A stretch of DNA of 55,227 bases, counting the filler, from Jimgerdemannia flammicorona (lineage: Eukaryota): assembly GCA_003990765.1 (NCBI GenBank). It is 3 parts of 3 records of this genome, joined end to end, with 100 filler letters (N's around TTAATTAATTAA, not from the genome) between each part and the next. Parts side by side here need not be neighbours in the genome. Positions count along the whole stretch, not along the records: positions 18,455 to 36,791 come from RBNJ01002231.1; 2 more parts are not named here. One strand, given 5' to 3'. Position 1 is the stretch's first letter. Each line of letters begins with the position of its first letter. Below are positions 18,355 to 52,864 of the stretch, in pieces. The translations under genes and the position numbers were made by a program. The notes below the pieces were generated by a model. The model was not told the DNA's origin. It was given only the letters and a program-made list of their open reading frames with translations, and made no database searches.

Positions 18355-18454
18355 NNNNNNNNNNNNNNNNNNNNNNNNNNNNNNNNNNNNNNNNNNNNTT
18401 AATTAATTAANNNNNNNNNNNNNNNNNNNNNNNNNNNNNNNNNNNNNNNNNNNN
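18355..18454. other. Artificial contig linker
   Basis: 44 N + TTAATTAATTAA (stop codons in all six frames) + 44 N; identical to 36792-36891. Confidence 0.97.
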
Positions 18455-21400: not shown

Positions 21401-22028
21401 CCCCAACACTCTGCTGTCAGAACCCAGTCAATCCTAGAGCCCAGTCCTGCTGCCCAATGGGTATACACCTGCTGATCAGTCCAAAAATATCTCCCTGAGT
21501 CCACTAAAGAACACAACCTTTCCATCTCTAACCAGTCTGCCAGCCTGCCACTTTCATCTCGCATGCCTCTCCCTCCATCAGTTCTGTCCAACTCCTTATC
21601 CTGTACCATGTTAAAATCCCCCCCCATACAGTCAAACCCAACTTCTCCCAATAAACCAGCCTCCTTCAATCTGCGAATCCAATCCACTCTCTCCCCTCTC
21701 TCAGCCAGGCAGTAACAAGACCCAACCATCAATGAGCCCCATCCAGGCCTCTTCCATACTCCCCACACCACCCGCAACCCCCAATGTCCAATGTCCCCAA
21801 TGTCCCCCATCCCTTTCCTAACAAGAATACCCACTTCCCCCTCCAAACTGCTGCACCCCCCCATTCCTTAGTCCAGTCCTGTAAATCCACGTCTGCATCA
21901 TACCGAACATCCTGTAACAAGAAGAGGTCTGCATCCAGACCCCAAAGCCAACCAAAGATGTACTTCCTCCTAGCCGCCCCCCGTAACCCATTAATGTTCA
22001 ATGAGAATATCCTAGTTGTACTGTTTAT
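18455..22028 (-). pseudogene. LINE ORF2 (APE-RT-zinc finger)
   Basis: IFSLNINGL, LQDV, GGDFN, RIDW, SDH, GEDGLP, DQEKAYDRV, GVPQGDPLSP, FADD, GGLGL, CKDC...EHWLGEC. Start codon decayed ATG>ATA. Confidence 0.93.
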
Positions 22029-22059
22029 ATTGAATAGATAATATAGAAGAGACCTCAAT

Positions 22060-23975: not shown

Positions 23976-24055
23976 GTTGTTAGTCATCGGACACCAAAAA
24001 CGTTGAAAAAAGTGTTGTCTGAGTCTTGTGTCACCCGAATGTTACTGGTGAAAGG

Positions 24056-24335
24056 TGTGTGTACTACTGTTGTATAGAATGACCTTAATTTCGCCTATAT
24101 ATCCTGGGTCAATGGTTCCTCCTTCTACAGTTATTCCTTGTCTGGCAAGTCCAGACCTTGAGATCAGTTCAATGTAAACTCCTTGGGGTGGCTGCATAGC
24201 TAATCCAGTTCTGGTTATGAAGGATTTTTCAGGCTTAATAGATTCATCCTCTAGACTGTGAAGATCATACCCTACATCTTCTGGGTGAGCTTTGGTTGGG
24301 GGTTTGGCCTTGGGATGTAGCAGGGCATACTGGGC
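24056..24335 (-). pseudogene. dUTPase (Gypsy B copy 1), truncated by the LINE insertion
   Basis: AKPPTKAHPEDVGYDL, TGLAMQPP, SRSGLA, GGTIDPGYIGEIKVIL. Confidence 0.92.
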
Positions 24336-27300
24336 AATGTCCTTGCTGAGTTCAGACTGTCCTAGGGCTGAAGCTTCACTAGTAGAGAGCCTCCAGGCTC
24401 TGAGGTTGGGGTGTGGCCATCTGGCTCCAATAGAGGGATCTCAGAGATAGTTGATTCCTCTTCTTCCTGTAGGGTCTAGGGCTTCCATGAAGTTGGTGGC
24501 ATCTTCTGCCCATCCTTGGTAGGTTGCATGTCTGATGAGGGTTAGAATGTCTTCTCCTAAATCATAGATCTTGAGAATCCTTCTTCCTGGCTTTTTGGTC
24601 TGGCTTTTTCAGATCTGGCTTCAGTTATCTCCTCTCTTTAAAGTGTGAACTGCAACATCATGACTGAGATGGATCTTCTTATGCCTGCAGTCTTGGCAGT
24701 CTGAGTGTCTTCCATAGTTGCAATATCTCATTGCTTGGAAATAATATTCCTGGTTGTTGATCTCTTGTTGTTTTGGGAATCAGTACCCATCTTGGTCATA
24801 AGTGGGTGGAAGAGTAGACAAGGGATATACTTCTGTCTGGGTGAAGAGGCCTTGTCCCCTGAATTGGCTTTGCAACTTAGTGGTAACTTCTTAGAAGGTA
24901 GTTGACTGTACAACTGTGTTCGGGGGTTCTGGTCTCTGGGGTCTCTGTCTCTCCTATTGGTCTAGTAAATGGCACTGATAGCAGTAGTCTCAGGGAGAGT
25001 GGAAGACCATTTGATGTAGACATCTTTCTAGCCAAAAAGCCTTTTCTTGATGAGTTTCTTTCTTGGAGATAATGGTGATTATACTGAGTCCTTCTTCTGT
25101 ATTCCAAGGGTCATTGTCTTCAGGTGGTGTCCAGTAAGAATCATCTCAGAGAATGAGTTCAGGGACCTCTTCTTCTTCAGGTGCTTCTTGTTCAGGATCT
25201 TCTTGGTCAGAAGTTCTTCTTTCTCAGATGATACTTGACTCCAAATTGCTTATACTTCTGTAGCTTCAGTTACAGGTGTTTCTGGAACATATTTGTATAC
25301 CTTCTTCTTCTTTCTGCACTCTGGGCAGGCTATGCCAGGTGATTTCCTTGTTCTCATGATCTTGGAGGAATGCTTGGAACACTTGTATCTCTTGAGATAG
25401 GTAGGGCATCCTTTGATTTCTCCTACAATAGCTCCAATGGTAATGGGGATAGTGTTTTTTTGCCCACACATTGTCTTCTGGTCTGTTATCCACCAGATTA
25501 ATTTGGGGATTGAGTCTGGGATCATTTCTATCTTCAGATTCTTCCTCTTCTTCTGTAGTAGATTCTTCACTACTGGCATATTCCTCCTGAATAGTGACCT
25601 TTTTCTTCTTTTTTGATTGCTCATAACTGGCTACCTTAACTCTATACTTCTTGCCTCGGTAGTCAAACTTGAGTACTTGTTGACCAATATCAATAACTGC
25701 ATTCATTTCCTTCATCCAGTTGGTACCAAGAATCATATCATAGATGACAGCTTTGGTGACAACAGCTTTCGGGATGGAGAACTGAATGTGTCCAAGAGAG
25801 ATGGTGATATTTCATACTTCTCCAAAGGGTTGAGTTCAGGCTCCATCTGCTACTATGATGCTGAGATTAGATGGTCCATCAATGGCCCATTGGAGGGTGT
25901 CCAGGAACCATTTGGCAATAACACAGATAGCTGCTCCTGTGTCTATGAGGATCTTCACCTTTTGTCCTCCAATATCTCCTTATAGGTAGGTACTGACATG
26001 TCTTTCAGCTGCTTGGACAGGGATGGGAACTGGTTCTTGCTGTGAGATTGGAACTCAGCCAGTGCTAGACCTGGTGGTTCTCAGCAATTTGTTTTGGACT
26101 CCAGCTGATGTCAGTTACAGGAACTGCAGAAGAGAGACTTCCATCTTGGCCTCTTGAATCTTCTGCCAAGCTTCATTGTAGATGTCTCTAGGCATGGTCT
26201 TCAGGGTGTACTTCTTCTTGGACTTTGAAGTAGTAGGTTTCCATTCTTCTTATTCTATCTCTTCATTTTCTAGTGGTAGCTCATTTGATTTAGAGACAAA
26301 AGGTGAAGGAGTCTAGGGAGGTGTTTCTACTTATTCTTCTTCATGTTCTTCATCTTCCTCTTGTGTGATTCTTCTGCTGATATTCCTGGATGGTCTTCCT
26401 ATAGGTCTCTTTCTTTTCTCTGCTGGATAGACTGTTTTCCATGTAGTAATCTTAGTAGGGTATAACTCGAAATCTTCAACAGGATGAGCATCAGTTTTTT
26501 TGTACTGAGTGTCATTTCTACAGTTTGATGATCTGAGTCCCTTTGATTACTTCTTTTGTTGTCACATTCAGTGGCATAGTGTCAAAATTGTCTACAGTAG
26601 AAGCATTAGACTTGAGCTCTGTCTTGGACAGGGTACCTTCTTTCTTCTTGCTGGTAATTTCTTTATTTCTTGGTGGGTAACCTTGGCTCCTCTGTGGTGG
26701 GTATCCTCTGTTGTCTTGGTAGCTCCAATTTTCATGTGTGGTGAGTTTTTCAATCTGTCCAACCAATCAGTCCAAGTTAGAGCTGAGGTCTTGGATTTTG
26801 CTTCTGTCCTTCTTTCCTTCCTTGGCTAGCCTTTTTCTTCAGGTCTTTGTTGTCCTTAAAGAAGTCCTTGTAATGCTTTGATCAGGATGTCTTCTTTATC
26901 TTCTTTCTTATTATGATCACTCCAGATAGTTCCTTGTCTAATATCAAAGAATCCCTGGGCTGCATCTACTTGCTCTTCAGATCTTCTGATGTCTACGGTA
27001 TGGACATACTGAGTAATGTTTGGGGGAATTACATTCATGAAGATCATTGGACCTATGATGTCCTGATTGGTGGCATTGAACCCAGCAGCATGCATTCTCT
27101 TCTGGATTCTTGTGAAGAAGGCTCTGGGTGATTCTCCAAGATTCACCTTCATCTCTATAATGAATTCTTGAGCCTTGTAGTGGGTTTCATTTCCTGCATA
27201 CTTTTCAATGAGCTAGTGGACCATGGCCACATATTCTAGCTTATAAGACATTGCTGCTTGTATCTGTCTCATCAGTTCTGAATCTGGGTTATCTGCTGTT

Positions 27301-28022: not shown

Positions 28023-29445
28023 TGTAATATGTCTGGCTCAATGGAGGCAAATTACAAGGTTGGAGGTTGATGTAGTTTGGCTTGAGCCCCCAGTTACTTT
28101 GTTAAAAGCAACAAAATGTTCTTGGTGTTTAGTGGCATAATAGTTAAAGCTGGATATCTACAAGCAATTCTGGCAATTTCCTTATTGGGATGATTCTCTA
28201 GGTGTAGTGGCAATTTGTGTGAATGGGTTTCCTTCTTGGGTCAACTGAGAATTGGTAGAATTTCATATATAGTGTGAGCAGCTTCCTTCTTGGGTGACAG
28301 TCTCCAAAAGTATGTGATTTCTGGGTATAGTGATCTTGTGTAGTGTGACGATCTCTGTGTAGTGCAGGTTCCTTATGTGTGATGGTCTGGCAATTTAGCA
28401 GCATTCCTTCTCAGGTGATGGGCAATCTCTGTATAGTACAGTGGTTTCCTAAAACAGCAGCTTACTGGGAATTATACTGGTGGTGGGTTCTTCTCGGGCT
28501 TACTGAGAATAATGAATAATTTTGGTGGCAGATAACTCAGATAACTTGGATAACTTGGATGTTACAGATTCTTCTTAACTGGCAGCTCTCTGGGAAATAA
28601 CTTGAATGTCACAGATTCTTCTTAACTGGCAGCTCTCTGGGAAATAACTCAGATGGTACAGATTCTTCTTAACTGGCAGCTCTCTGGGAAATAACTCAGA
28701 TGGTGCAAATTCTTCTGAATCAGGCTCTTCTGGGAATAATAACTCAGGTGTTGTGGGTTCACTGGGAATACAGATAACTTGAAAATGGTAGCTTCAACTG
28801 AGAAATGTGCTGGTGGCTTTTTGAGAAAGAGTTTCTGGGCAAAGTTGCATCAAAGACTGGCTTCATTTGCATGAACAGATCACTGTAAAGTTGCATTAGA
28901 AACTGGCTTGAGCAAGGTGGCTTTCTCTTAGGCAGTGGAAACTTAGGTTCTTCAGGCTTATCTGGCAAGCATACCAATAATAATAATTCTAAAGGTGGCA
29001 AAGTTCTTCACTTGAACTTGGCAGCAAAATCAGCTTTATATCAGAAAGTAGACTAGAGCATGAATAAGGTGACCAATGTTCAATATTTAGAGGCTTCTTT
29101 GGTTTGCACTTCAATTTGGACTGAGGTTTATTCACTCTTATCTCTGGGATAATTTATACAAGTTGGTTGCTATCTGGTTACTATGTGGCTAACTTTAGAT
29201 CTGCTACTTATGGCAGATGTATATAGTCTGTATAGTGTACAGAACCTGTACAGTATACAGAGTCTGTACAGGTAAACAGACCCTATCTAGTATATCTGGC
29301 TAATTATAAGTGTGGCAGGCATAAGTAAATATAATATACTGAAAGTCATATTATGCTGGGAGCCCATGTCATCTGGTTAAGTATGCTAATTATTCACATC
29401 ATCTGGCTAAGTTATAATTTGGGTGATACATTTTAGTTTGTTACA
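28023..29445 (-). repeat. 5' LTR of Gypsy B copy 1 (~1.42 kb), with an internal 47-bp tandem array at 28564-28750
   Basis: TGTAAC...ATTACA termini; homologous to 30879-32328; 47-bp units start at 28564, 28611 and 28658. Confidence 0.85.
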
Positions 29446-29869
29446 ATATATATACCTATATATATACTATATCAATATCAATATCAATAGATCAGTTATC
29501 AGTATTTTCCAGTACTAGTGATACTTCAAGTCAGACTTCTTTAAATAATGTCCAGTCTTCTTTATATAATATTCTATGCTATACTCCTCATTCTGAATTT
29601 TGGCAATACTGTACTAAAACTGAGAAAAATGAAGTTACTTATAAGTATTACAGATATATTTTTTTTTTTTAAAAAAATATAGACAGAAATATAAAACATA
29701 CAGTAGTTCTATGATAAATAAGATAAAGTATATAAAGGTCCAATATTTGGATAAAATGGAGTTAAATATAGTATCAAGTAAAATTGATATTTCAGTTATA
29801 GTAAGTAGGTGATCTCTATTTTATTTTAGTATAAATTTGAAAATATATCTTTTATACTTAAAAAAACCC

Positions 29870-30800
29870 TCCCCAATTTAACCATATTCTGCTCTAGAGT
29901 TTCAAAATCAGCTTATTTATTAGATTATATATAATTATTGACTATTTATAGTAATTGAGAGTGCTTTTTTATGAAGTCTCTTTGGTCTTCTTAAGTCTGA
30001 TTTATATACCCCAAGTGCTAATACTCTTTATAATGATATTATAGAGGCTTATAAAAAAGAATATAATAATCTCTATAGTTACTGACAATATTTTAAATTT
30101 TACTATAGAGTATTATGAGTAAAAGTTTATTTATAATTGATGTCTGGACATCTCCCAATGTTATTTTATTTCTTGGTATTACTAGACATTTAATTGATTC
30201 CAATTAGCAGCTTCAAACTCTTACTCTTAACTTTATAAAGCTTGAGGATCCTCACTCTGGAGAAAGTATTGCAGAAGTATTTATAAACTGTATTCATAAG
30301 CTTAGAATTACAATTAAGTTATAGGAGTTTTTTATTTTTAAACTAATATAAAAAGAGAATGAAAAAAAAAAAACTTTTTACTTTTAATTATTAATTAATT
30401 TTATATAACAAAATTTTGAAATACAGATATTGATCATTATAACAGACAATGCCTCTAACTACATCACATTTCTCCACATTTTGGTAACAAAACTTCAATA
30501 AAAAAATGTAATCTTTGATATTAATAATAACTATATACAGTGTTAAGTCTATGTTCTGAATCTCCTGCCCAAGATTATCTTACACAACTATTCAGTTAAT
30601 GGAGTAAAACTAGCAAGAGCTCTAATACTATTTCAAAGTTATGCAAATTGATTATTATAATTTGATCATCATCACTATGGTGAAAAAAACTTATTGAACA
30701 GTATAAAGCAATTTCTCTCAATCCAAAAAAACTTATTTTAGATATCAGTATATATTGGAACTCAATATTTACAATGATTGAATAAGCACTAATACTTGAT
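29870..30800 (+). pseudogene. hAT-superfamily transposase relic, intron-containing
   Basis: PSANTL, IDVWTSPN...FLGITRH.ID, HSGESIA, ITDNASN, IQC.VYVLNL (CxxH motif decayed), LILDISIYWNS (decayed DxxTRWNS); intron-like AT-rich block ~30318-30426. Confidence 0.85.
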
Positions 30801-30878
30801 ATAGTATATAGGTTACTTATAATAATATTATAGAATAGGATTTAACTTATTAATTAATATTAATTTATTCAAATATAT

Positions 30879-32328
30879 TATGACAAGCCAAGATATACCA
30901 CCCAAATCATATCTTAACCAGATGATGCAAACAAGACGACATGAACACACAGCTTAGTAACCAGCAACCATTGCTGCGGAAAACTGTATAAATAGCCAGA
31001 CATACCAGAAAGGGTCTGTTTACCTATACAGACTCTGTACACCTGCCATAAGTAGCAGATCTATAGTTAGCCACATAGTAACCAGATAACAACCAACTTG
31101 TATAAATTACCCCAGAGACAAGAGTGAATAAACCTCAGTCCGAATTGAAGTGCAAACCAAAGAAGCCTCTAAAGATTGAGCAATTGGTCCCCTTATTCCC
31201 ACTCCAGTCCACTTTCCGATACAAAGCTTGAAGATTTGCCACCAAGTTCAAGGAAGAACTTTGCAGTCTTTTGAAGAACCCGCCGCTTAAAGGAATAAGC
31301 CACGCTATTGGTACACTTGCCAGATAAGCCTGAAGATTTGCCACCAAGTTCAAGGAAGAACTTCGCCACCTTTTGGAGAACCTGCCACTTAAAGGAATAA
31401 GCCGTGCTATTGGTATGCTTGCCAGATAAGTCTGAAGATTTGCTGCCCAAGTTCAAGAAAGAACTTTGCTGCTATTTCCTAGAAGACCATTGAATCCAAG
31501 TTATCCTCTGCCTTCCCAAGAAAGCCACCTTGCTCAAGCCAGTTTCTGATGCAACTTCACAGTGGAGCCAGTCTATGATATAACCCTGTGCAAATGAAGC
31601 CAGTCTTTATGTAACTTTGCTGAGAGACCCTTTCCCAAAGAATGCTGCCAGTAGTTCATATTCCCAGTTAAAGCTGCCAATTTAGAAGAATTCATACCAC
31701 CTGAGTTATTTCCCAGAAGCTGCTGATTTAGAAGAATCTGTGCCACCTGAGTTATTTCCCAGAAGCCCACTGATTCAGGAAGAATCTGCATCATCTGCCA
31801 TTTTCGAATTACCCACTGCATTCCCAGAAGAACCCCACCGATTCAGGAAGAATCCGCATCATCCAAGTTACCCAAGTTATTGAATTATCTGCCTCCCGTG
31901 ACATCCAAGTTATTCATCATTCCCAGTAGCCAAATCGAGTTATCCGCCAAATCCACATAAGGAGAACTGCTAAATTGCCAGACCGTCACATACAAGGAGA
32001 TTGTCGCACTACACAAAGATTGTCGCCCCAAGACCATAACCCAGAAATCGCATCCTTTTGGAAATTACTTTGCTACACAAAATTATACCATTCCCAGTTG
32101 ACCCAAGAAGGAAGTCCATTCATGCACAAATCGCTGCTACACCCAGAGAACCGTCCCAAAAAGGAAACCGCTCGCAGATATCCAGATTGACTATTATACC
32201 ACTAAACACCAAAGATCTCAGAAATCTTAGAACATTTTGTTACTTTTTGACAAAGTAACTGGGGGCTCAAGCCAAACTACATCAACCCCCAACCTTGTAA
32301 TTTGCCTCCATTGAGCTGGCATGTTACA
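30879..32328 (+). repeat. 5' LTR of Gypsy B copy 2 (1.45 kb), with 102-bp tandem units at 31229, 31331 and 31433
   Basis: TATGAC (mutated TG start)...GTTACA; TATAAA near 31101 and AATAAA near 31127; homologous to 28023-29445. Confidence 0.85.
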
Positions 32329-32460: not shown

Positions 32461-33800
32461 TTGGACAGGAAGAGAAGTAATTACCTCAAGACTTGCCAAC
32501 TACCCAGCATCAGAAAGATCTCAACCAGAAGCAGGAGGCAGTATAGTCTGAAATCCCCAACCAGATCACCAGATCAACCAGATAATACAGACAGTCCTGC
32601 TAGAGATTTTGGAGAACTTGCACAAGAACTAGAAGATTTTATTACCCAGATCCAACATTTTACAGCCAGACACCCCACACCAGTCCCATCAATCTCACCA
32701 ATAGAACCCCTACCACAACCCCTTGCAGAATCAGAAGTAGCTCCTACAAGAATACCTAGGCCTATTCCACCTCACCCAAGGACCAGAACACTATCCTCAA
32801 GATACCCAAGCACCCCTGTCTCTAGTGATAGTTCAGAAAGTGAACCAGAATCAGAAAAAAGTAATGATGAAATGGCCACCTCATTGCCAAACTTTGCAGG
32901 ATATCCAGAGGAGGACCCCAGAGAATTTTTTGATGGAATTGAAGGAATTGCAGTCTTGAGAAACCTCTCAGATGAAAGAAAAATCGCTATCTACAAAGCC
33001 CAGCTTAGAGAACCAGCTAGAGGAATTTTCCACCAAACAGCAAACAACCCAGATTCGGAACTGGCTAGACAGATATAAGTGGCATTCTCTGATAAGTTAG
33101 AATATGAGGCCATGGTCCATTGGCTCATTGGAAAATATGCAGGAAACAAAACCTGCTACAAGGCTTAGGAATCTATCATGGGAATGAAGATGAATCTTGG
33201 AGAATCACCCAGAGCCTTCTTCATAAGAATCCAGAAGAGAATGCATTCTGCTAGATTCAATGCCACCAACCAAGACATCATAGGTCCAATGACCTTCATG
33301 AATGGAATTCCTCTGAATATTGCCCAGCATGTCTGCATCTTAGGCATCAGAAGGTCGGAAGAATAAGTAGTTACAGCCCAAGGGTTCTTTGATGTCAGAC
33401 AAGGAACCATCTGGAGTGATCATGATAAAAAGGAAGATAAAGAAGATATCCTGGTCAAGGCCCTGCAAGGACTCCTTCAAGGATAAGAAAGATCTGAAGA
33501 AAGGAGGCAAGCCAAGAAAGGAAAGAAGGACAGAAGTGAAATTCAAGATCTCAGCTCCAAGTTAGACCAATTGGTTGGCCAGATTGAAAAACTCACTATA
33601 CATGAAAATCGGAGCTACCAAGACAACAGAGGATACCCACCACAGAGGAGCCAAGATTATCCACCAAGAGATAACAGGAATTACCACCAAGAAGAAAGAA
33701 GGTACCCTGTCTGAGACAGAGCCCAAGTTCAATGCTTCTACTGTAGATAATTCAGACACTATGCCACTGAATGTGATAACAAAAGAAGTGACCAAAGGGA
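32461..33800 (+). pseudogene. gag: Gypsy B gag
   Basis: Capsid-like PNFAG...DPREF, GESPRAFF.RI, CCHC knuckle; start uncertain. Confidence 0.8.
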
Positions 33801-34379
33801 CTCAGAACCACCAAACTGAAGGAATGATACTCAGTACAAGAAGACTGAAGCCCATCCTGTTGAGATTTTGAAGAAGTAAGCAACAGTGAAGACTACAGTG
33901 ACCTAGACTTATACCCCACTAAGGTTACAACCTGGAAAACAGTCTATCCAGCAGAGAAAAGAAAGAGACCCATAGGAAGACCATCCAGGAACACCAGCAG
34001 AAGAATTATCCAAAAAGAGGATGAAGAACATGAGGAGGAACAAGTAGAAACACCTCCCCAAACCCCCTCACCTTTTGTCCCCAAGACAAATAAGTTGCCA
34101 CCAGAAGATGAAGAAATGGAACAAGAAGAACAGGAACCTGCTGCTCCAAACCCTAAGAAGAAGTACACTCCGAAGACCATGCCTAGAGATATTTACAATG
34201 AAGCCTGGCAAAAGATTCAAAAAGCTAAGATGGAAGTCCCTCTCCTACAGTTCTTGCAACTGACACCAGCTGGAGTCTGAAACAAATTGCTGAGAACCAC
34301 CAAGTCTAGCACTGGCTGAGTTCCAATCCCACAACAAGAACCAGCCTCCATCTCTGTCAAAGCAGTCAAAAGACATGTC

Positions 34380-36791
34380 AGCACCTACTTACATGGGGAC
34401 ATTGGGGGACAAAAAGCAAAAATCCTCATAGATACAGGAGCAGCTGTCTGTGTCATTGCCAAATAATTCCTGGACACCCTCCAATGGCCCATTGATGGAC
34501 TATCCAACCTCAGCATCATAGTAGCAGATGGAACCCGAACACAACCCCTTGGAGAAGTATGAAATATCACCATCTCCCTTGGACACATTCAGTTCTCCAT
34601 CCCCAAAGCTATTGTCACTGAAGCTGTCACCTATGACATAATTCTTGGCACCAACTGGATGAAGGAAATGAATGCAGTTGTTGATATCAGCCAACAAGTA
34701 CTCAAGTTTGACTACCAAGGCAAGAAGTATAGAGTTAAGGTGACCAGCTACAAGCAATCAAAGAAGAAGAAGAAGGTCACTATTCAGGAAGAATATGCCA
34801 GCAGTGAAGAATCTACCACAGAAGAAGAAGAAGAATCCGAAGATGGAAATGATCCCAGACTCAATCCCCGAATTAACCTGGTGGATGACAGACCAGAAGA
34901 CAATGTGTGGGCTAAGAACACCATCCCCATCACCATTGGAGCCATTGCAGGAGAAGCCAAAGGATGCCCCACATGCCTCAAGAGACACAAGTGTCCTGAG
35001 CACTCCTCCAAGATCATGGGAACAAGGAAATCGCCTGGCACAGCCTGCCCAGAATGCAGAAGAAAGAAGAAGAAATGCAGACATGTTCCAGAAACACCTG
35101 CAACTGAAGCTGCAGAAGTACAAGCAATTTGGGGTCAAGAATCATCTGAGGAAGAAGAAACTTCTGACCAAGAAGTTTCTGAACAAGAAGCATCTGATGA
35201 AGAAGAAGTCCCTGAACTCATCCCCTGGGATGACCCTTGCTGGACACCACCTGAAGACAATGACCCCTGGAATATAGAGGAAGGACCCAGTACCATCACC
35301 ATTATCCCCAAGAAAGAAACCCACCAAGAGAAAGCTTTCTGGCTAGAAAGATGTCTACATCAAATGGTCTTCCACTCTCCCCGAGACTACTGCTATTAGT
35401 GTCATCTGTTGGACCAACAAGAAAGACAGAGACCCCAGAGACCAGAACTCCCAACTACTCTTGCACAGTCTACCACCTTTCAAGAAGTCACCACAAGGTT
35501 ACAAAGTCGATTTAGAGGACAAGACTTCTTTATCCGAACACAAATATACCCCTTGTCTACCCTTCCCCCAACCTATGATCAAGATGGGTACCGATTCCCA
35601 AGACAATAAGAGATAAATAGCCAGGAACATCATTTCTGAGCAATGGGATATTGCAACCATGGGAGACACCCTGATTGCCGAGACTGCAGACATCAGAAGA
35701 TTCACCTCAGTTATGATGTTGCAGTGCACACCTTGAAGAAAGGAGATAACCAAAGCCAGATCTGAAAAAGTCAGATTCAAAAAAGCCAGACCAAAAAGCC
35801 TGAAAAAAGAATCCTCAAGATCTTTGATTTAGGAGAAGACATCCTAGCTCTCATCAGACATGTAACCCACCAAGGATGGGCAGAAGATGCAACCAACTTC
35901 ATGGAAGCCCTTGACCCTATAGGAAGGAGGGGAATCAATTATCTCCAAGACCCCTCTACTGGAGCCAGATGGCCACACCTCAACCTTAGAGCCTGGAGGC
36001 TTTCTGCTAGTGGAGCTTCAGCCTTAGGAAAGCCTGAACTCAGCAAGGACATTGCCCAGTATACCCTGCTCACCCTAAGGCCAAAACCCTGACCAAAGTC
36101 CACCCAGGGGATGTAGGATATGATCTTCACAGTCTGGAGGATGAATCTATCAAGCCCGGAAAAACCTTTATGGTCAGAATCAGATTAGCCATGCAGCCGC
36201 CTCAAGGAGCTTATATTCAACTGATCTCAAGGTCCAGACTTGCCAGACAAGGGATAACCATAGAAGGAGAAACCATTGACCCTGGATATATAGGTGAAAT
36301 CAAGGTTATCCTACACAACAGCAGTGCAGAATAGCACCGAATCATTAGAGGACAGAAGATTGCCCAAGCAGTCTTCATGAAGGTCAAGACCCCACAGTTA
36401 CAGGAAGTCTCTGAACTAACCAAAGGAACAAGACAAGCCAAGGGATTTGGAAGTTTAGACAGGAAAGAGGTATATCTCCTTCAAGTCAACCACCTCAAGA
36501 GGAATGTTCCCCAGCAAGTATACCAGCAACCAGTCAGACTGCACAAGAATCGCATCCTGGAGCCTAGAGAACAAACTACCTTTGAAATATTTGCACCACC
36601 TGACCCCAGGAATCTTTTCTTTGAACCTAAGGAAGACATCCCACACCTGGACATAGAGGGACATACATTCCCTGACAAGATGAACCCAGTACACTCCCGA
36701 GCAACCAACCAAAGTTGGGAGACCATCATCCTGCCAAAAGGAACCATCATAGGACATCTGGTGCCTTTTCTCAACCAAACTCATAGGGAAG
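34380..36791 (+). pseudogene. pol: Gypsy B pol N-terminal half: protease, Cys/His-rich insert, dUTPase, dUTPase-like domain
   Basis: ORF track pieces 34659, 35409 and 35901 are one reading frame broken only by transition-type stops. Confidence 0.85.
36055..36460 (+). pseudogene. dUTPase (Gypsy B copy 2)
   Basis: VGYDL, SRSRLA, TIDPGYIGEI, GQKIAQ, RQAKGFGS: all five motifs recognisable. Confidence 0.92.
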
Positions 36792-36891
36792 NNNNNNNNN
36801 NNNNNNNNNNNNNNNNNNNNNNNNNNNNNNNNNNNTTAATTAATTAANNNNNNNNNNNNNNNNNNNNNNNNNNNNNNNNNNNNNNNNNNNN
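36792..36891. other. Artificial contig linker
   Basis: 44 N + TTAATTAATTAA + 44 N. Confidence 0.97.
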
Positions 36892-38087: not shown

Positions 38088-38950
38088 GTGATTGTTAAAA
38101 GAACCTGGACACTGTACCGTGTTCGTACTTTTTTTTTTTCTGGTGCGCTCTATCGCCAGCAAGCCACCACGTCGCTCGGCCACAAACTGATTGTCACGTC
38201 TGTTTCTGTCGCTCGTTCAAGTCGTGCTATCCTGCGTTTTGTCGATCGAACCATCCCGGGGTTGGTCTTGTGCATGAGAAGGGGGCCATACTCGTGAAAG
38301 GGTGAACCCCTAGCCACCGTGATGGTCATGGCCACAACAGGCTATGTATATACGTCATTGCAGCCAAGAGGCTTGTCGCCGAACCTGGTGGTAACTGGTT
38401 GGTTTTGTGGCAATTACATGATGACTATGGTTGTTTGTCTGTTAAAATGGCATCACTCCACCTGGGACACCCGTAAGTTCAATTTGTAGCAGTTAAATCA
38501 ACCACAGCAGTTCGCCAAACTACCACCAACCTAGTCAGCATGGGCCTTACACCAGTAATCGATTGAATTCCTCCCTGCATCTTGATGTCGAAGATATGGG
38601 ATGCTCATTCATAAATTCAAGGACAAACCGGAGCTGCTCCAGGCCATACCGAAGGACACAAGTTGTTATTTCACAATGCCAGCATCCTCCATCACGACGT
38701 TCGCTGAGAAATATACCCTGTCAGAGGGGTGTTTATCGAACTCGACTATGCAATTCCCAGAAATAGATTGCAGGCCGAGAGCGCAAACCGTACTGGGACA
38801 GGGCCGTTCATGGCCATCAAAGTTCTCGAAGAGAAGGTACAAGCAATCCGACTCTACGTCTTGCTCTGGATATATGTATTTGGAATTCGATGGGCCCCAT
38901 GAAATGCAACGTTGCGAGGATGATCTGGAGAATCTCTTACAGAGTGTTTG
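38088..38950 (+). pseudogene. Fungal-type protein kinase (FunK1 / Pkinase_fungal) pseudogene
   Basis: One frame from 38651 reads EGHKLLFHNASILHHDVR*...GVFIELDYAI...RTGTGPFMAIKVL...LYVLLWI, preceded in another frame by HKFKDKPELLQA. These match FunK1 motifs (F.S..ELL.A, GH..L...GILHRDIS, LIDLD.A, RTGT..FMA..L, YVLLWI). Stop, frameshifts and deletions; 5' boundary uncertain. Confidence 0.75.
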
Positions 38951-39724: not shown

Positions 39725-41817
39725 ATGAACTTCCGTTTCTCCAGCCCGCTTGTCCAAGTCATCATCGTCGGTCTCGTCTGCTTCTGCTGTCCGGGCATGT
39801 TTAACGCCCTCAACGGTACCCCTATCTCCCCTTTCTTTTTTTTTTCATCGTCACGTCCGTACTGCATCCCCTAACATCTATCAACCATCCCACGTGTAAA
39901 ATCAAACAGGTCTCGGGGCCGGCGGTCGGATCGGTGCCGACGTCTCGCTGGTCGACAAGGCCAACTCTGCGCTGTACAGCTGTTTTGCTATCATAGGGTT
40001 CTTCGCGGGATCGGTCAACAACATCTTGGGCTTTAAGCTTACGCTCTTCGTATGTGGTCTGCTCTTCTCTTTTCTCTCGTGCTGATCTGCCTCTCAGTTC
40101 ACAGGTCCCGCAAACTTAGCTTTATATATCAACACCTATAACCTCCCTTTTTTTCTTGCTTCCGCATATTGTCGGTCCCCGCATCTTCTCTCACAGTTTG
40201 GCACGATCGGCTACGTTGTCTACGCCGGATCTCTTTGGTCCTACGACCGCAACCAGAACGATGCCTTCGTGATCGCGGCCGGGGCGCTTCTCGGGGCATC
40301 CGCAGGTTTACTGTGGACCGCGCAGGGCTGTGTGATGATGTCGTACCCGGAGGAGAAGGACAAGGGGAAATATGTATCGATCTTCTGGGCCATCTTCAAT
40401 GTGAGGAATCCGAATTTTCTGAGCGAGTATGCGTTTGATGCGGTCCAGAAGATTGGACATAGTTCGAATTTCTAATCCGTCCACATCCTCCTGTTCATTC
40501 AGCTCGGAGCCGTCCTTGGCTCCATCATCCCCCTAGCCCTCAACATCGAGAACAAAAGCAGCGGTGGTGTCAGCGACGGTACCTTTTTTTTTTTTTTTTT
40601 TTTTCTCCATCTCTCTACCTCGACCCAGTCACACCTAATTCCCCTTCCAATCCCCAGGCACCTACATCGCCTTCATGATCATCATGATGTTCGGAATTCT
40701 TTTAATCCTTCTTCTGAAGCCGCCAAACAAAGTGACGCGCGATGACGGGACGCCTGTGACACTCGTGGTGTCGACGGACTGGCGGTCAGAGCTGAAAAGC
40801 ATTGTGCTACTGTTGGGCAATTGGCGCATGGTGTTGCTAATACCCATGTTCCTAGGGTCGAACTGGTTTTACGCCTACCAGTTCGGCATCAATGCAATTT
40901 ACTTTGACGTGCCCACCAGGGCGTTGAACGGGACCATGTACTGGTGGGTCTTCCACGTCGTGCTCAGACCTCCCGCTTTTGGATTCCATCAATCACTCGA
41001 GTTTGCGCTCGGCAAGTCCCCCACCCCTACTGACCCAATGACGCTCACCGCATCAGGGCTGCCCAGATTTTCGGTTCAATTGCAATGGGCTGGTTCCTCG
41101 ACTCAAAGTTTCTGAACCGCCGCGGACGTGGTCTAGCGGGTCTGGCAATTATGGGCACGCTGTTCTGCGGCGTGTGGGCTGGCGGGCTAGCGTTTCAACT
41201 TGGGTTCGAACGCGGCGAGAACCTCGGGGTCGGCTGGTCGGACCCGCGATTCCCCGGACCGTTCGTACTGTACTTCAGCTACGGCATGATGGACTCTATC
41301 TACCAGGTACGGGATTCGGCTTGTGTTCGTCTGATAGTGCGTTAATCCTGATCTTTCGCTCTCTTTGCGCCCGCCCACCTCGTATACCAATCTCAGACTT
41401 ACTGCTACTGGCTCATGGGCGCCCTAACCAACGACGCGGCCGCCCTCAGTACGTAATCTTCCCCTCCCATTAATATTCCATCCTTCCCTTCATCCACCTT
41501 TAACGCTCAAACCTCCCTATCCAGGCCGCTACGCCGGCTTTTACAAAGGCATCCAATCGGCTGGAGGAGCGTTCAGCTTTGCGATCGATTCAGTCTCGAC
41601 ACCGCTGGTGATCGAGCTGGCGATCTCGTGGGGTCTCTTAGGGTTGAGTGTGCCGTGCGCGTTCCTGGTGGCACGGACGGTAACGGAAACGAATTATGGG
41701 CGCGAGTCCGACGTGCCCGTGCCCGGGGACGTGGAGATGGAGGTGGGAAAGGCGAAGGCGGAGGAAGTACAGGCGAGCGGGAGTGTGGGGAAGGATAGAT
41801 CCGGACTGGCGGTGTGA
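39725..41817 (+). CDS. UNC93-like (DUF895) major facilitator superfamily membrane protein, 8 exons, 463 aa
   Basis: Exons 39725-39815, 39910-40049, 40197-40400, 40503-40578, 40658-40943, 41057-41306, 41397-41448, 41525-41817; all introns GT-AG; 1392 nt open frame. Motifs VCFCCPGMFNAL.GLGAGG, LLWTAQG..MMSYP, SNWFYAYQF, YWLMGALTND, RYAGFYKGIQSAG. Confidence 0.93.
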
Positions 41818-42169: not shown

Positions 42170-45100
42170 TTTTAATTACTGAAACAACTAAGAGACAAAG
42201 TAGTGATCCACTGATTATCATTCAAAAAAACTCAGAGCTTTTAGTTTTTATTCTAATTGTTTATTTTTTATTTCTAAGATAGCAATGACAAAGTCTTGAT
42301 TTTGAGATCACTGACACTGGTTTCTAGATGATAAATATTTGGGGCTTTAATGTGTCTACTGGAAGCATAATTAGATAGAATATGAAAAAAAATTCCTTCA
42401 TTTTTTGTACTATAACTAGATTGGTATTAATAAAAATATCAAAATTTAGAGTATTTTCTTTTATTCATATCTATCTTAAAGGAAAATATTCATTATTTTC
42501 TTTAATAGTTAGAATGAATTGCAATTTATACTAAGGAAAATGACCAAAAGTTTAGAATTACTACTATTATTAAGATATCTCTCTTTACTCCTTTCTCTAC
42601 TACCTTATTAGTTATAAGGTTTGATAGGCAATCTTCTAAGTTTTCTTTCCTCTATTATTATCCCCTCTATCTCAAGTTAGTTTGCTATGTCTATATAGAC
42701 ATAGTGGGAGGAGGACAATGGTGATAAGTTGCTTCTTTATTGGTATCAGATCAGTGTCTTCTCCACTTTTTCATAGTTTCTAGTATCTTCTCTACTTTTT
42801 CATAGTTTCTAGTGTCTTCTCCACTTTTTCATAGTTTCTAGTGTCTCTGGCTGTGTCTGGAGTATACTCATTTTGGTGTGGCACCTTCTTCCTTTTGTCA
42901 TCATCAATAAGGTATCATCTTGGTATATCATAGACTGCATAGGATATTAACTAACCTTGGACATCAAGTGCCAGTATAGGTTATCTACAGATTATTCAGT
43001 ACCTATGATAGAGCTCTCTGAGCTTTGGTAAGCTTCTCAGCAAGTATAGTACTAGTATAGATGACTGCTTTTTGGATATTATTGGGATGGGAGGAGAGAT
43101 GGTCATTATAGATAGGAAGAAGAATAATTATGGTGAACCAGTAAGGTACTAGACTAAGAGTGGTCATTGGGGTTAAGGTAGATATTATCTTGATGAGGCT
43201 TTCCAATTGACTAGTAGAGAGTGGGATAGTGTAGGAGCTGGTATCCTGGCTATATCTAACTAGAATTAGGAGCTAATATAGCAATGTGATTGAGGCCCAC
43301 AGACTTGAGGAGTGGAACCTTTCTTATTTGGTAGTATCTGATTGAAACTGGAAGCTGATACAGTAATGTAATTAAAGCCCACAGACTTAGAGAGTAAGAG
43401 TGGAGTCATTTCTGACCCTAACTCATATGTAAGTTTTTTTGGAGAGATTTCTGTATATAAGTTCTTTACTCACCTGCTTTGAATCTATCTTGCTTTCTAT
43501 TGATTAGTTAGAGAGTTTTTCTTTATCTCAGGCTTTTTTTTGAAGTTTGGGGGGCTATTCTTTATTCAGTCTTGATACTACTAGATCTAATATATAGGTG
43601 TACTCTTATATAATATAATGATCTAGCTCTGGTGAATAGACAAGTCTGGTCTATATCATGAGGATCAGCATAGCTAGTGTCTGACAGACATAGCTAGAGC
43701 AGTGAGACTACTGGACAATTTAGTAGCTTAGATTAATAGGGGGATAATATCTAGTGGATGGTAGAGGAGAGTTTTAGTCTATATAGTCTAGGTTTCTTTT
43801 TAATAAAAATCTATGAAACTATAAGTCTATTAAAAAAAAAAAAAAAAAAAAAAAATCTCTCTTTTATAATAGTAGTTAAAGCTAATAGCAATTCTTTAGC
43901 TATAAAAAGAGAAGAAGTATAAAAATAAAAATTAGATTGATCAATTTTAATCTTTTCTTAATTATATTGACTTTATATTTATTATCTTATTTTATCACTC
44001 TTATCAATATAGGAATAATCTTATTACTTTTGGTTATTATTTATTTTATTTTTGAAACTCAAAGTAAAGCTATCAGAGTTATAAAGTATAATTTCTACTT
44101 TATTTCAAAATCTTTTAAAATAATTCTTAAAAGATATTTTTTTATATTTTTCTTCTCAAAAAAGAAATAGTTTGGAAGATATCAAATGTTTATCTCAATT
44201 ATAAATAATATTTAGCTTTCTCTCTTTAACTTTTGTCTATACTTAATAAAGTATAGAGAGACTCAATATAATTTTGAAAATTCATATTTCTATAACTTTA
44301 ATAATATAAATAATTTTATTTATTAAGAGTATAAACTAGATTGGTTTTGGATAAGTGATATTTTTGAATTTTTCTAAATAAAGGAATAAATATCATAATA
44401 AAGATATTTTTGATGTTTTAATTTTATAAGAGGAGATATTAGTACTTAAAATAATAAAGTCTTGATTTTTTCTCTAACTTTTGAAGTCTCAGATTTACTA
44501 CTTTTTAATAGTTTGAATTTTTAAAATAAACTATTTATAACTTCTTGAGTTTTGATTATATTAGAATTAGAATTAATAAAAAGAAGATATTGAAATCCTT
44601 TACTATTATTATAATATTAATCTAGTGATACTAGATCTTTTTATTATATTTATAATATAATCTATATAATCTACTATAATTTTATAATAAAGCCTTTTAA
44701 TTAAATCAAAACTATTATTATATATAAATTTAGTATAGTTTGAAACTATGAGGTTCAATTTAATACTTTTATAATAACTATAAATTACTAAATATATATA
44801 AAACTAAAGAGTGATATTATTTTTATTTTGTCTATCTATATTATTATAAATGATTTTCAAATACTTTTCTTTTTTATTTAGTTTATTTTATTTTATTAAA
44901 GATCAAACTAAATATACTATTAAGACTATTTTTAAATAGGTTATTCTCATTCAGTATATAATTAATTTACTCATAAACTACTTTATCAATATTAAACAAG
45001 TATATCTTATAAGTACTAAAATAATATATCTTATTGATCTATTGATCTAAATAAGATATATAAGTATTTTGAGCTTAGTTATAACTATAATAAGCTATAA

Positions 45101-45190: not shown

Positions 45191-46738
45191 TATTACATAG
45201 TGATCACTGAGTCCTTCAAATATGTCAGATTCTCTTCAAGATGTATCTCTTAGACTAACTCAAGTTTGTTATAAGCAAGTTCTTATTGGAGTACTCTCCT
45301 GAGATCTTATAGTCCTCAAACTTCTTATCTTTAAACTGTCTTGTTATTTTTTTAGATTGCTTATAAGGAATTATATATATTATACTAAAAGGAAGTAACT
45401 TTATTTCAAAGGAAATAAGTGGAGTATTTATACAAAATATAATTCAATAGTTGCTAAAATATAAAGCTAAATATAAATTCCAATAATCAAATAAAATACT
45501 GGAATACAGAAAACTGCCAAGTTCCAGTATTGATACAGATAGTTGCATAGATTTAGGATACTGATATAATTTCGGTAATATAGAAAAAGGGTACTGGAAT
45601 AATTCTGAGTCACATAAGATTAGAATATCAGTAGAGGAATAGCTGTTATACAGGAAAAGAATATTAGCATAATTCAGTATAACTAAGGGACTTAGAGCAG
45701 AATATTCAAGACTATGGGGGCTTCATCTTTATCAGAGGTCAGGTGTCTTTGAAGGAGATGAGATCAGTTTCATTATGCATTTCACATATATCATGTGAGA
45801 TGATATCATTATTGATGATATTATCATGTTCAGCAGTAGGGAAATCAGAGGCTCTCCAATCTATGAGGTTCTCTTCCACAAAATAGAGAACAAATGTGGG
45901 TCTTGGAGAGGTCTGACCTGGATACTGAGGCCTTGGAATGCAGAGATCAATCCTTACAGGAATTGATCTGGGTTGTTCTGAAGGATGGGATACCAGAACT
46001 CTTATATCTTATTACTATTAAGAGTGATAGTAGACTGGGCTTCTGTTACTACCCTGACTTCTAGTATATTGATATGGTGGGCTGACAGATCTCTGAAGTC
46101 TATAACTCTAGTATACTCCAAGTTGGAGATTGACTATAGTATATGCCTGAAGATCTGATAAATCTTTTTAGCTATCCTTATTTCATATATATCCATGGAA
46201 GTGATATCTTATAACTCTTGAGGGCAGGCCTGTGGAAACTTCTGGTAGAGAAGGTTTCTTATTTAATACTTCTGCTATATTTGGAGGCATTTGGTAGTAA
46301 TAGTAATTCTTGTTTCTATTTTATGGCAGTAGAGAATAAAGTAATAAGGATATCTGGTACCCAGGTTGAGACTAGGAGTTTTTCTTATATAGGTTCTCAT
46401 AGCTCTTCTGATGTCTTAGAATATCTTTTCTTCAACTGAGAAATCTTAGTAGTTTCTTGACCTTGAGGTTTGGCAAGCAATAGGCATTTTGTTTGTAGTA
46501 AGTCTTTGAGCTATTTTGGAATTAGTAGGTCTTATTGAGTTACTGCTACTGTGGTTCCTTGATCCTTCTTTTATATTTCTCAAGATACATGTACTGTGGT
46601 CACAATGACTCACAGTTGATCATTATTACTCATCTCATAGCCTGGGTGAGTCATGCCATATAATCTCCTTCTGATCTGATGGCTTATAAGAAAGGCTGTC
46701 TCCTGTGCTTATGTCATCATTCTGAGGTCACTGTTACA
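45191..46738 (-). repeat. 3' LTR of Gypsy C
   Basis: Direct repeat of 52865-54412 with the same length; starts TGTAAC on the minus strand right after the PPT. Confidence 0.95.
45742..46487 (-). pseudogene. LTR-encoded ORF of unknown function (~250 codons), 3' LTR copy
   Basis: TATAAAAG at 46575-46568, ATG at 46487, ~155 codons without frameshift, then a further ~85 stop-free codons after a 1-nt shift; most stops are sense codons in the other LTR. Confidence 0.65.
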
Positions 46739-46748
46739 TCTTCCTCCT
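46739..46748 (-). promoter_or_regulatory. Polypurine tract
   Basis: AGGAGGAAGA directly abutting the 3' LTR. Confidence 0.8.
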
Positions 46749-48144
46749 GAATAAGGATCTTCTTGAATATTATTATTCATTGGTCCAGTCCTGAAAAATT
46801 TGCTGATTCCATAACCTCTAGCAGGGAGTCAAAAAGTAGTATTTATGGACTGATATCTTCCCTATGTATTTTGGTATAATGGTGAAGGGTCACTTCCTTC
46901 ATATAGAGTAAGGGCCTGATTCTGATCTTGACTAATCAGTTGATGGTTCAAACTTCTTTGGCTTCAAAAGTCTTATAGATGAGTAGTTGCTGGTGCTATA
47001 TCCCTTAGAGAATGGTTTAGATAGATTGCCTGCTAGTCATGAGACATGCTGTTATAATTCACAGACTAGAACCTCACAGGCAGTCATTATATTTTACTTC
47101 TCTTATATAGGTTCATAGTACTTCTTGAGTCTGTTCCTGTATACTATAGTAAGCAGTATAGTCCCTGAGAGTTTTCTAAGCCAGAAGATAGTTTTCTTGA
47201 TATCTTATATATAGAAGAGTCTTTCTCATTTGGGCTCCTGTTTTCATGACCATGAGACTTCTACTATATTTTGATACAGTAGGACCTTTTCTCTAATTTG
47301 GATAGATTTTAAGGTCTTGTAATTCTTTTCTGCATTCTTCCTCATCAGTACTTGTGACTTGATGATATAATATTCAGCCTTCTTTCTAATTTGGTATAGT
47401 CTCTGGATTTCTGAGTCAATCTATCTCCAAGTTAGGTCTAGATTTATGGCTGAGGTTCTATTGGAATCTTCTTCTCTGAAGAGCAGTTCTTTTGGAGTAA
47501 AGTATATACTCTATGACCATATATCTCATAGGACAGAGAGAGCAGTTGGAAGGTAGTTATCCCAATTTTCATATATGTCTGAGATCTTCACCAGAATATT
47601 CTTGAGAGTCTTATTGGTTCTCTCTGTCTGTCCATTTCCTTGAGAGTGGTACACAGTGGTCTTGATGTGCTGGATCTTATATTTCTGATATATTATCTCA
47701 TAGAATCTATTGACAAATTCTGTGCCATAGTCTGTGGTGATTTGCTTTGGTGTCTTGTAGTGGCAGATGATTTCTCAATATAGGAAGTCAGCTATAGAGA
47801 GGGTATTGGCTTCTTGTAATGCTTCTGCTTCTATCCATTTGGTAAAGAAGTCTATAATAACTATAATATAGTGGTTTCCTGATAGTGTTACTAGTAGTGG
47901 CCCAATGATATCCATTGTAATGTGGTGGAAGGAGATAGGCTCAATTCTTAATGACCCAGATGCCTGATCTTACTGATCTTGTTTCTGTTTTTGGCACTTA
48001 TTACACTCTTTGACAAATTGATACAGGTCTTTTTCTATCTTGGGCCACTATATGGTTCTTCTTACTTTTTTGTATATGTTGGTTCCTCCTAGGTATCCTT
48101 GTTTGTGTACTTTCTTCATTACTTGATACTTCTTATATTTGGAT

Positions 48145-48568
48145 TAGTGCTCCTAAATGAGTCGAATCAATTCGAATCAAATCGAATTGAGGGTTAAACG
48201 AGTCGAATCGAATTGGGGATTTTTCAATTCGAATCAATTCAAATTGAATCAAAAGTTGAATCAAATTGAGGATCTGATTCAAACCCTAATTTTCAAAATG
48301 CAATAACTCAGCATAAACTCATCCAAATCTAACGTACTTTAGCTTGTTAGAATCACATTAATACAGTGAATCTAACAAGCTAATATATATTAAATTTGGA
48401 TGAGTTTTCGTCGAGTTATTACATTTTGAAAATTAAGGTTCGAATCGAACTTCAAATCAAATCAGACCTTTGATTCGATTTGAATCGAATTGAATTGGAC
48501 CCTTGATTCAATCGAATCGAATTGAGTTTGGGCCAAATTTGATTTGATTCGATTCATTGGGAGCACTA
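48145..48568. mobile_element. hAT-type MITE (424 bp), almost entirely palindromic
   Basis: TIRs TAGTGCTCC...GGAGCACTA; exact 8-bp TSD ATTTGGAT (48137-48144, 48569-48576); subterminal GAATC/TCGAA repeats; internal inverted repeat. Confidence 0.95.
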
Positions 48569-52861: not shown

Positions 52862-52864
52862 AGT

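Follow-up and report, generated by a model that had tools for sequence, protein, structure and literature searches.

A stretch of about 457 amino acids in the genome of Jimgerdemannia flammicorona (NCBI GenBank assembly GCA_003990765.1), located between the aspartic protease (PR) and the dUTPase of a long terminal repeat (LTR) retrotransposon, is an authentic polyprotein segment, from PR to dUTPase, of a Ty3/Gypsy-like element that carries a dUTPase. This stretch is coding, was under selection and forms an integral part of the element family. It exhibits three Cys/His clusters, of which the first, strongly basic one appears to have been gained later and in frame as a cellular domain, placed inside an acidic linker. 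Clusters 2 and 3 belong, as their alignment to a distant relative indicates, to an older lineage-specific module, separate from this putative capture. For the anatomy of the stretch, its coding constraint and its homologies our confidence is high.

The window, meaning the whole stretch of DNA that was analyzed (55,227 nucleotides, filler included; all positions refer to it), contains two spacers at 18355-18454 and 36792-36891, each of them with the structure N44-TTAATTAATTAA-N44, a joiner carrying stops in all six frames. The window therefore consists of three contigs placed end to end, and sequences flanking a spacer are not contiguous in the genome. Both spacers fall outside the PR-to-dUTPase stretch. 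According to a self-comparison the middle contig includes two copies of one element, which are arranged head to head and share 83% nucleotide identity over 4.4 kb. Copy 1, on the plus strand, begins at about 31011 and reaches the end of the contig (36791), and copy 2 is located on the minus strand and runs from about 29247 to 24060. Both copies are decayed, dead pseudogenes, with seven in-frame stops in copy 1 (34281-36089) and 14 in copy 2. They are separated by an AT-rich stretch (29250-31010); further stretches of this kind, with a G + C content in the range of 0.16-0.29, occur at 9000-12000 and 44000-45000.

Anatomy and coding status of the protease-to-dUTPase stretch

A single frame of copy 1, starting at 34281, leads first through PR and an acidic run to cluster 1, and then through another acidic run to cluster 2 and cluster 3. 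Upstream of this frame, a motif scan revealed a Gag CCHC zinc knuckle (C-x2-C-x4-H-x4-C; 33733-33774) with one internal stop. PR itself (34395-34706; residues 39-142 of P0001) matches the Pfam families gag-asp_proteas (2.4e-10) and RVP_2 (1.2e-07) and contains the protease motif LIDTGA at 34425-34442. It is followed by acidic linker 1 together with the lead-in to cluster 1 (34773-34958), whose net charge reaches -10 per 20 residues and which P0010 matches with 91% identity. Cluster 1 is a basic zinc-type domain of 44 residues (34959-35090), recognized by its motif, its charge and its homology to the proteins P0007 and P0009, and includes the string GCPTCLKRHKCPEH...ACPECRRKKKKCRH (34965-35084), in which C229 begins at 34965 and H268 at 35082. 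Acidic linker 2 (35091-35225; net charge down to -11 per 20 residues) connects it to a WDDP...ETHQEKAF block that ends with cluster 2 (35226-35405), supported by alignments to the protein P0004 and by soil-metagenome contigs. The cluster 2 string CLHQMVFHSPRDYCY*CH spans 35352-35405, with C358, H360, C371 and C374 as putative ligands (35352-35402), and the stop within it (TAG at 35397) reads CAG in all soil contigs covering this position.

Downstream of cluster 2, a middle segment of the conserved module containing the residues DGYRF (35406-35648; phmmer match to P0004) precedes cluster 3 (YCNHGRHPDCRDCRH; 35649-35693; alignments to P0004), for which C458, H460, C466 and C469 are the putative ligands. 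The segment in front of the dUTPase (ALDPIGRRGINY...WP; 35811-36079) is conserved with P0004 and has neither a Pfam match nor a known family. The dUTPase domain (36080-36454) was identified with a Pfam E-value of 1.2e-14 (5.7e-05 for its C-terminal part) and contains one stop; a deletion of one nucleotide near 36070 shifts it into a different frame from the insert. Finally, a conserved post-dUTPase region (36455-36790; P0004 alignment) extends to the end of the contig. All of these features are encoded on the plus strand. The interval between PR and dUTPase that lacks any Pfam family amounts to about 1373 nucleotides. The sequence-only reading, which had described an insert of about 450 amino acids with three Cys/His clusters in frame with the protease, thus agrees with the frame read from 34281 in size, in the positions and strings of the clusters and, for copy 1, in frame, but this frame carries seven stops and the dUTPase of copy 1 is read in another one.

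In copy 2, PR, insert and dUTPase are all placed in one frame. Its PR and insert (24300-26093, minus strand) exhibit 71% amino acid identity to copy 1, and the N-terminal part of its dUTPase (24045-24440, minus strand; Pfam 3.7e-18) shares the frame of its own insert. The likeness of the two copies ends at 24060, where a LINE-like (long interspersed nuclear element) element abuts copy 2. Comparison of both copies over insert residues 290-603 yielded 62 synonymous changes among 113 substitutions, with 30.6% expected when the observed transition bias is allowed for (p = 7e-8). PR showed a similar pattern (22 of 37 synonymous, p = 3e-4), and the ratio of nonsynonymous to synonymous substitution rates (Ka/Ks, Nei-Gojobori) was 0.17 for insert and PR alike. 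As the ligand positions of the clusters are also conserved in relatives, this synonymous excess places the clusters beyond chance.

Soil metagenomes provide a further view on the family. In four runs from two studies, 586, 39, 26 and 79 contigs matched the region 34700-36400 at an identity of at least 80%, with depth in 29-30 of the 30 bins of this region. Single contigs cross cluster 1 and its borders without gaps, and no joint skipping cluster 1 was found among them. When the differences in these contigs were translated, 12 of 26 were synonymous and none of the 26 affected a Cys or His of the clusters (best 26 of 491). The abundance of the family in soil metagenomes implies that intact copies should exist.

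Decayed copies with seven and 14 stops in a window that is stitched from contigs could also raise the idea that the clusters are an artefact, either because non-coding DNA in decay contains Cys and His patterns by chance or because an unrelated nested insertion or an assembly chimera lies between PR and dUTPase. Such an origin is very improbable, because the stretch is read in one frame in copy 2 as well as in P0004, exhibits the synonymous excess mentioned above, is collinear with P0004 over a range that starts at PR and extends past the dUTPase, and is bridged at the borders of cluster 1 by soil contigs, with both spacers lying elsewhere. A nested unrelated insertion, which the sequence-only reading had named as a finding that would speak against it, is therefore not what is present between PR and dUTPase.

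The assignment to Gypsy rests on the CCHC knuckle of Gag, the RVP_2-type protease and the presence of nearby dUTPase-Gypsy elements in the window. A Gag CCHC knuckle and an aspartic protease with D-T/S-G, as expected for Ty3/Gypsy elements, are both present, and so is a dUTPase (PF00692) that follows PR in the frame of the polyprotein, as expected for dUTPase-bearing fungal Gypsy elements. Of the order PR, reverse transcriptase (RT), RNase H, integrase together with a pair of LTRs, only a 5′ LTR-like flank was observed, as the copies end before RT. This 5′ LTR-like region of copy 1 (31011-31950, plus strand; edges approximate, without a 3′ LTR) is an inverted match to 29247-28420 of copy 2, and in a self-BLASTN search 28501-29247 aligned to 31928-31011 with 70-87% identity, so that the flank is common to both copies. 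RT, RNase H and integrase were not found in either copy within the window; copy 1 ends at the contig-joining spacer (36792), and the LINE-like element truncates copy 2 at 24060. Past the spacer at 36792 the sole Pfam match is a fungal protein-kinase fragment, and families of RT, RNase H or integrase were not found there either. Between the two copies (24300-26093 and 34281-36089) 196 transitions and 29 transversions were counted, and many of the stops are TGA, which together suggests a deamination-type decay.

Clusters 2 and 3 and the distant relative P0004

Among 1.84 billion representatives, an exhaustive search with HMMER yielded only seven matches at E ≤ 0.001. The best of them (E 5e-16) is P0004, a protein of 1179 amino acids which contains Gag (zf-CCHC), PR, a spacer and a dUTPase (Pfam 1.3e-32) in this order in one single protein and which is collinear with copy 1 from PR to past the dUTPase. 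The older module of copy 1 (35151-35993; phmmer query residues 127-407) corresponds to residues 586-866 of P0004, with 32% identity over about 280 amino acids. The pre-dUTPase segment, which we describe as helical, is part of this module. For residues 1-150 of 36335-36790 of copy 1, comprising the C-terminus of the dUTPase and the post-dUTPase region, BLASTP yielded 35% identity to residues 981-1128 of P0004 (E 2e-26). The post-dUTPase region itself (about 110 amino acids; P0004 about 1040-1128) does not match any Pfam family. Its short hydrophobic strands recall a second, degenerate dUTPase-like barrel, which is an impression only.

P0004 retains residues of the ligand type (C-x-H/C...C-x2-C) at each of the eight positions that are putative ligands in clusters 2 and 3. 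In the aligned region, which has 29% identity, six of seven Cys residues of copy 1 are also Cys in P0004, the exception being the Cys of DPCW; by a binomial estimate, the chance of such a retention at this background identity is about 3 in 1000. H360 is a His in P0004 as well, and H460 is replaced by a Cys. The other His residues of both clusters (H365, H375, H463 and H471) are not retained. This pattern of retention reduces clusters 2 and 3 to a repeated four-ligand motif, C-x-H/C-x(5-11)-C-x2-C, with cluster 2 showing the spacing C-x-H-x10-C-x2-C and cluster 3 fitting C-x-H/C-x5-11-C-x2-C. For the ligands of these two clusters, the conservation of Cys and His across distant family members that the sequence-only reading had proposed as a check is thus found in P0004.

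Beyond P0004, relatives of the older module appear to be scarce. None of 3749 candidates among longer proteins was related to the insert, and the insert of P0004, used as a query, retrieved only P0004 itself among 1646 candidates. In metagenome contigs the corresponding part of P0004 yielded 21 pattern matches and no relative, and in viral contigs nothing was found with P0004 and P0003 as queries. A search of the PDB with P0003 gave no match at E ≤ 10, and no usable match to the module of P0004 was obtained in the ESM Atlas. The best matches of a PDB profile search with the older module, a radical SAM protein (E 0.099) and KDM4 (E about 0.5-0.8), were judged to be noise. A classification of clusters 2 and 3 as zf-CCHC (PF00098) was also rejected, as their spacing differs from C-x2-C-x4-H-x4-C and the insert does not contain any zf-CCHC match at E ≤ 10.

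Cluster 1 and its likeness to Zn2Cys6 domains

Cluster 1 exhibits the pattern C-x2-C-x5-C-x2-H-x14-C-x2-C-x6-C and a net charge of +12, with 14 Lys or Arg residues and two Asp or Glu residues among 44 amino acids, placed between acidic linkers reaching -10 and -11. It is lacking in P0004, in which the acidic linker is uninterrupted. Homologues of cluster 1, with 42-44% identity to it, are present in two proteins that are not part of transposable elements. P0007 (289 amino acids) contains the domain beside a C2H2 finger, and in P0009, a hypothetical protein of J. flammicorona with 531 amino acids, the domain precedes repeated acidic segments. Except for this domain, in which they are 50% identical over 54 amino acids, P0007 and P0009 have nothing in common. 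The absence of cluster 1 from P0004 and its occurrence in both of these proteins suggest an in-frame domain capture, the direction of which would follow from three sequences only. The view of the whole insert as a captured or novel module, as put forward in the sequence-only reading, accordingly fits cluster 1, and clusters 2 and 3 fall outside the capture.

In an alignment of four rows, C19, C28, H31, C46 and C49 of cluster 1 are invariant, and the remaining two Cys residues are kept in the three intact rows. These intact sequences (copy 1, P0007 and P0009) preserve all six Cys residues, the His, the residues SPG and one Arg. The fourth, copy 2, contains cluster 1 in a frame-shifted form (25253-25459, minus strand). 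It is enclosed there by two indels, +1 and -1 (equivalents of 34912 and 35158), after which the frame is restored, and stops are present also in the shifted frame. Two Cys and two His residues have been replaced by Tyr (C232Y, C266Y, H236Y and H268Y). The two indels may be coincidental or may reflect a lineage that had come to dispense with cluster 1. The statement that copy 2 keeps the layout of copy 1 is hence correct for the overall layout and its amino acid identity, but not for cluster 1, which is out of frame and has lost these four residues. No further homologues were detected: the domain of P0009 retrieved no relative besides P0009, and the cluster 1 alignment yielded 54 pattern matches and no relative in metagenome contigs. 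The domain with six Cys and one His has so far been found only in this element and in P0007 and P0009, two cellular-looking proteins of which one belongs to an Endogonales fungus, and it is new to the libraries searched.

The string ACxxCRxxKxKC in the second half of cluster 1 had been taken as the signature of the first half of fungal Zn(II)2Cys6 domains, and Zn2Cys6 is indeed the only family that was brought up by any search of cluster 1. Zn_clus (PF00172) is the top Pfam family for three of the four cluster 1 members, with a best E-value of 0.0027. However, copy 1 scored 15.4 bits (E 0.02) and 15.8 bits (E 0.015) and did not reach the gathering threshold of 21, and only positions 1-18 of the 39 positions of the profile were aligned, namely onto the second half of cluster 1. 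Whole P0007 and P0009 did not match Zn_clus at E ≤ 1. A PDB profile search with cluster 1 resulted in only three matches, to LAC9 and GAL4 (E 1.6-3), which were confined to the first half of these domains, and the named matches in the ESM Atlas were Zn_clus clusters with a score of 0.77, which is below the level of a lead. As all of these signals depend on the ACxxCRxxKxKC string they are not independent of each other, and as the matches remain sub-threshold and cover half of the profile, cluster 1 is not filed as a member of Zn2Cys6.

Like Zn2Cys6 domains such as those of GAL4 and LAC9, cluster 1 includes six Cys residues in two C-x2-C-x(5/6)-C halves, exhibits the basic signature ACxxCR-x-(K/R)-x-KC and is fungal. 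Unlike in these domains, the signature occupies the second half instead of the first, one residue is missing from the first half, and the halves are 17 residues apart, including the invariant His and SPG, compared to six residues in GAL4. Canonical Zn2Cys6 domains, in which six Cys residues hold two zinc ions and which bind DNA sites of the CGG type, range within C-x2-C-x6-C-x(5-12)-C-x2-C-x(6-8)-C, with x2, x6, x6, x2, x6 in GAL4. The spacing C-x2-C-x5-C-x17-C-x2-C-x6-C of copy 1, P0007 and P0009 lies outside this range at two places (x5 and x17), with all six Cys residues present. Overall, cluster 1 may be a divergent relative of Zn2Cys6, and its descent from this family appears evenly balanced between likely and unlikely. 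A permuted order, in which the second half of a Zn2Cys6 domain would have been placed first, had also been considered in the sequence-only reading. The first half of cluster 1 (C-x2-C-x-K-K/R-H/R-K-C), however, resembles a shorter copy of the second half, both being built on the basic motif C-x2-C-(K/R)n-K-C, and this does not support a permutation.

Other zinc-binding families were dismissed as well. Copper-fist (PF00649), with the spacing C-x2-C-x8-C-x-H, was not among the families at E ≤ 10 for cluster 1, the spacing here being C-x2-C-x5-C-x2-H. Readings of the clusters as a RING domain or a zinc ribbon were dropped, as the respective rows (RING_XB3 and Zn_ribbon; E 0.014 to 3.7) were far below the cut-offs.

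Possible roles of the clusters and genomic surroundings

Within a reverse-transcribing element, a basic domain rich in Cys residues and two small knuckles immediately precede a trimeric enzyme, and this combination points to a zinc-stabilized nucleic-acid-binding arm for the dUTPase as a possible, if tentative, role of the stretch. The putative zinc modules would form this arm on the homotrimeric dUTPase and would hold the enzyme on RNA or cDNA within the particle or the pre-integration complex, a task also proposed for the NC-dUTPase fusion (NC, nucleocapsid) of betaretroviruses, and the basic cluster 1 would increase the affinity for DNA and possibly aid nuclear import. That the stretch binds zinc, binds nucleic acids and tethers the enzyme is each regarded with the same reserve, as somewhat short of an even chance. 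In betaretroviruses, the knuckles are the CCHC motifs of the Gag nucleocapsid (NC), and the dUTPase precedes PR. A comparable arrangement is known from the NC-dUTPase of Mason-Pfizer monkey virus, a zinc-knuckle nucleic-acid-binding polypeptide fused to a homotrimeric dUTPase (PMC1802613). Common to both is a zinc-knuckle part N-terminal to the dUTPase in a retroelement, which we regard as a functional likeness and not as common descent. In contrast to the viral protein, the clusters of the J. flammicorona element are located after PR, have the spacing C-x-H...C-x2-C and lack similarity to zf-CCHC.

Several points weigh against such an arm. Cluster 1 alone does not exhibit a significant constraint between the two copies (10 of 24 substitutions synonymous, p = 0.18), which fits with its decay in copy 2. 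The AlphaFold models, based on alignments of four or six rows, are of low confidence (predicted local distance difference test of 47.6 for cluster 1 and 39.6 for the module), and the Pfam and PDB searches did not reveal a significant match to any nucleic-acid-binding family. As the element already has a CCHC knuckle in its Gag, an additional NC-like function is not required. The dUTPase-Gypsy element at 45197-54412 has a PR-dUTPase linker of about 100 amino acids without any Cys clusters, and the cluster 1 of copy 2 is out of frame and lacks two of the Cys residues. The knuckle of Gag, the neighboring Gypsy element lacking the module and the loss in copy 2 together speak against any essential role of the clusters. 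That the module remains on the mature dUTPase after cleavage by the protease is, moreover, an assumption.

The lack of likeness to nucleic-acid-binding families is also compatible with clusters that act as structural zinc knuckles, with cluster 1 perhaps serving as a nuclear localization signal patch, and that would have a role in folding, oligomerization or the timing of processing without binding nucleic acids. The long acidic and probably disordered linkers around the clusters, the KKKKK and RRKKKK runs, which resemble classical nuclear localization signals, and the absence of the module from the related dUTPase-Gypsy at 45197-54412 are in line with this idea. As the Cys-rich domain carries a net charge of +12 on 44 amino acids and the same domain is located by a C2H2 finger in P0007, which fits better with DNA binding, a purely structural role is nevertheless considered rather unlikely.

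If, on the other hand, cluster 1 were a true sequence-specific DNA-binding domain of the Zn2Cys6 type derived from a host transcription factor, it might, after release by the protease, direct the element to particular DNA sites, in integration targeting or in binding to the LTR of the element itself. This comes close to the sequence-only reading, in which a module released by the protease would bind nucleic acids or chromatin. In addition to the ACxxCRxxKxKC signature, the top rank of Zn_clus in Pfam for three of four members (best E 0.0027), the restriction of all three PDB profile matches to LAC9 or GAL4 and the Zn_clus clusters of the ESM Atlas (score 0.77, as a lead only), the neighborhood of the domain to a C2H2 finger in P0007 and to repeated acidic segments in P0009 would be consistent with such an origin. 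Yet, the scores are all sub-threshold and cover half of the profile, the signals go back to one short motif and are not independent, and the spacing x5 / x17 / x6 is non-canonical. Furthermore, the domain is far from the integrase, the site of known targeting domains, and cluster 1 was lost from copy 2 through a frameshift, so that this explanation appears unlikely. A broader variant, in which a captured host transcription-factor domain of a new six-Cys/one-His family, a long-loop cousin of Zn2Cys6, would either tether the dUTPase to cDNA or steer the element to DNA, is viewed as doubtful.

LTR retrotransposons now and then take up cellular domains that alter the site or mode of their replication, and the chromodomain, which is located at the C-terminus of the integrase and directs targeting, is the classic case. 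Extra domains such as chromodomains are described for LTR retrotransposons in PMC3248453 and PMC2864245. The putative capture of cluster 1 resembles these cases in that a small cellular domain was placed in frame in Pol, and differs from them in its position between PR and dUTPase and in its absence from any described family. The main text of PMC3248453 contains neither the word dUTPase nor the word zinc. If the capture is true, it would add a new case to this process, with a basic zinc domain that also occurs in transcription-factor-like proteins placed beside a dUTPase. It would also provide a handle on the role of the dUTPase in fungal retroelements and on long-loop relatives of Zn2Cys6 in fungi outside the Dikarya.

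According to PMC2864245, the position of the dUTPase in fungal Gypsy elements varies with the family, as it may occupy the N-terminal or the C-terminal end of Pol or be flanked by PR and RT, with examples in Postia placenta (PosPlaTy3-5), Phanerochaete chrysosporium and Tuber melanosporum, and the role and origin of the dUTPases of fungal retroelements are called unclear there. The element described here shares with these the CCHC knuckle of Gag, the aspartic protease and a dUTPase downstream of PR. It differs by about 457 amino acids with three clusters in front of the dUTPase and by about 110 conserved amino acids after it, and in the passages of PMC2864245 on the dUTPase elements no such module is mentioned. 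For Entomophthora muscae, a preprint (bioRxiv 10.1101/2023.09.13.557621) describes an enrichment of the Pfam families of PR and dUTPase via transposons. No publication joining a Zn2Cys6 or binuclear cluster with the polyprotein of an LTR retrotransposon was found by a search with subscription journals and supplements outside its range.

The window includes at least three differently organized families of dUTPase retroelements. The element at 45197-54412 (minus strand) is a full-length, decayed dUTPase-Gypsy of another family, with LTRs of 1.5 kb at 45197-46738 and 52871-54412 (86% identity), in which PR is followed by the acidic linker of about 100 amino acids, the dUTPase and directly by RT. 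A further dUTPase element is located at 996-2906 (minus strand), with RT at 996-1304 and the dUTPase (2277-2594) immediately behind a weak match to Ty3_capsid (2598-2906, E 0.005), an arrangement which suggests a dUTPase at the start of Pol.

Three LINE-like copies with Exo_endo_phos and RVT_1 domains, sharing 63-75% identity, are present at 4000-9000 (minus strand), 13000-18000 (plus strand) and 19000-24000 (minus strand) and exhibit an extreme GC skew of +/-0.4 to 0.56. The end of the LINE-like element that abuts copy 2 at 24060 has an 88% identical counterpart at 3-431. The third contig includes ordinary host genes, namely a Pkinase_fungal fragment (about 38651-38872, plus strand; 5e-08) and an intron-split gene for a transporter of the UNC-93/MFS type (40086-40472, plus strand; 4.8e-07).

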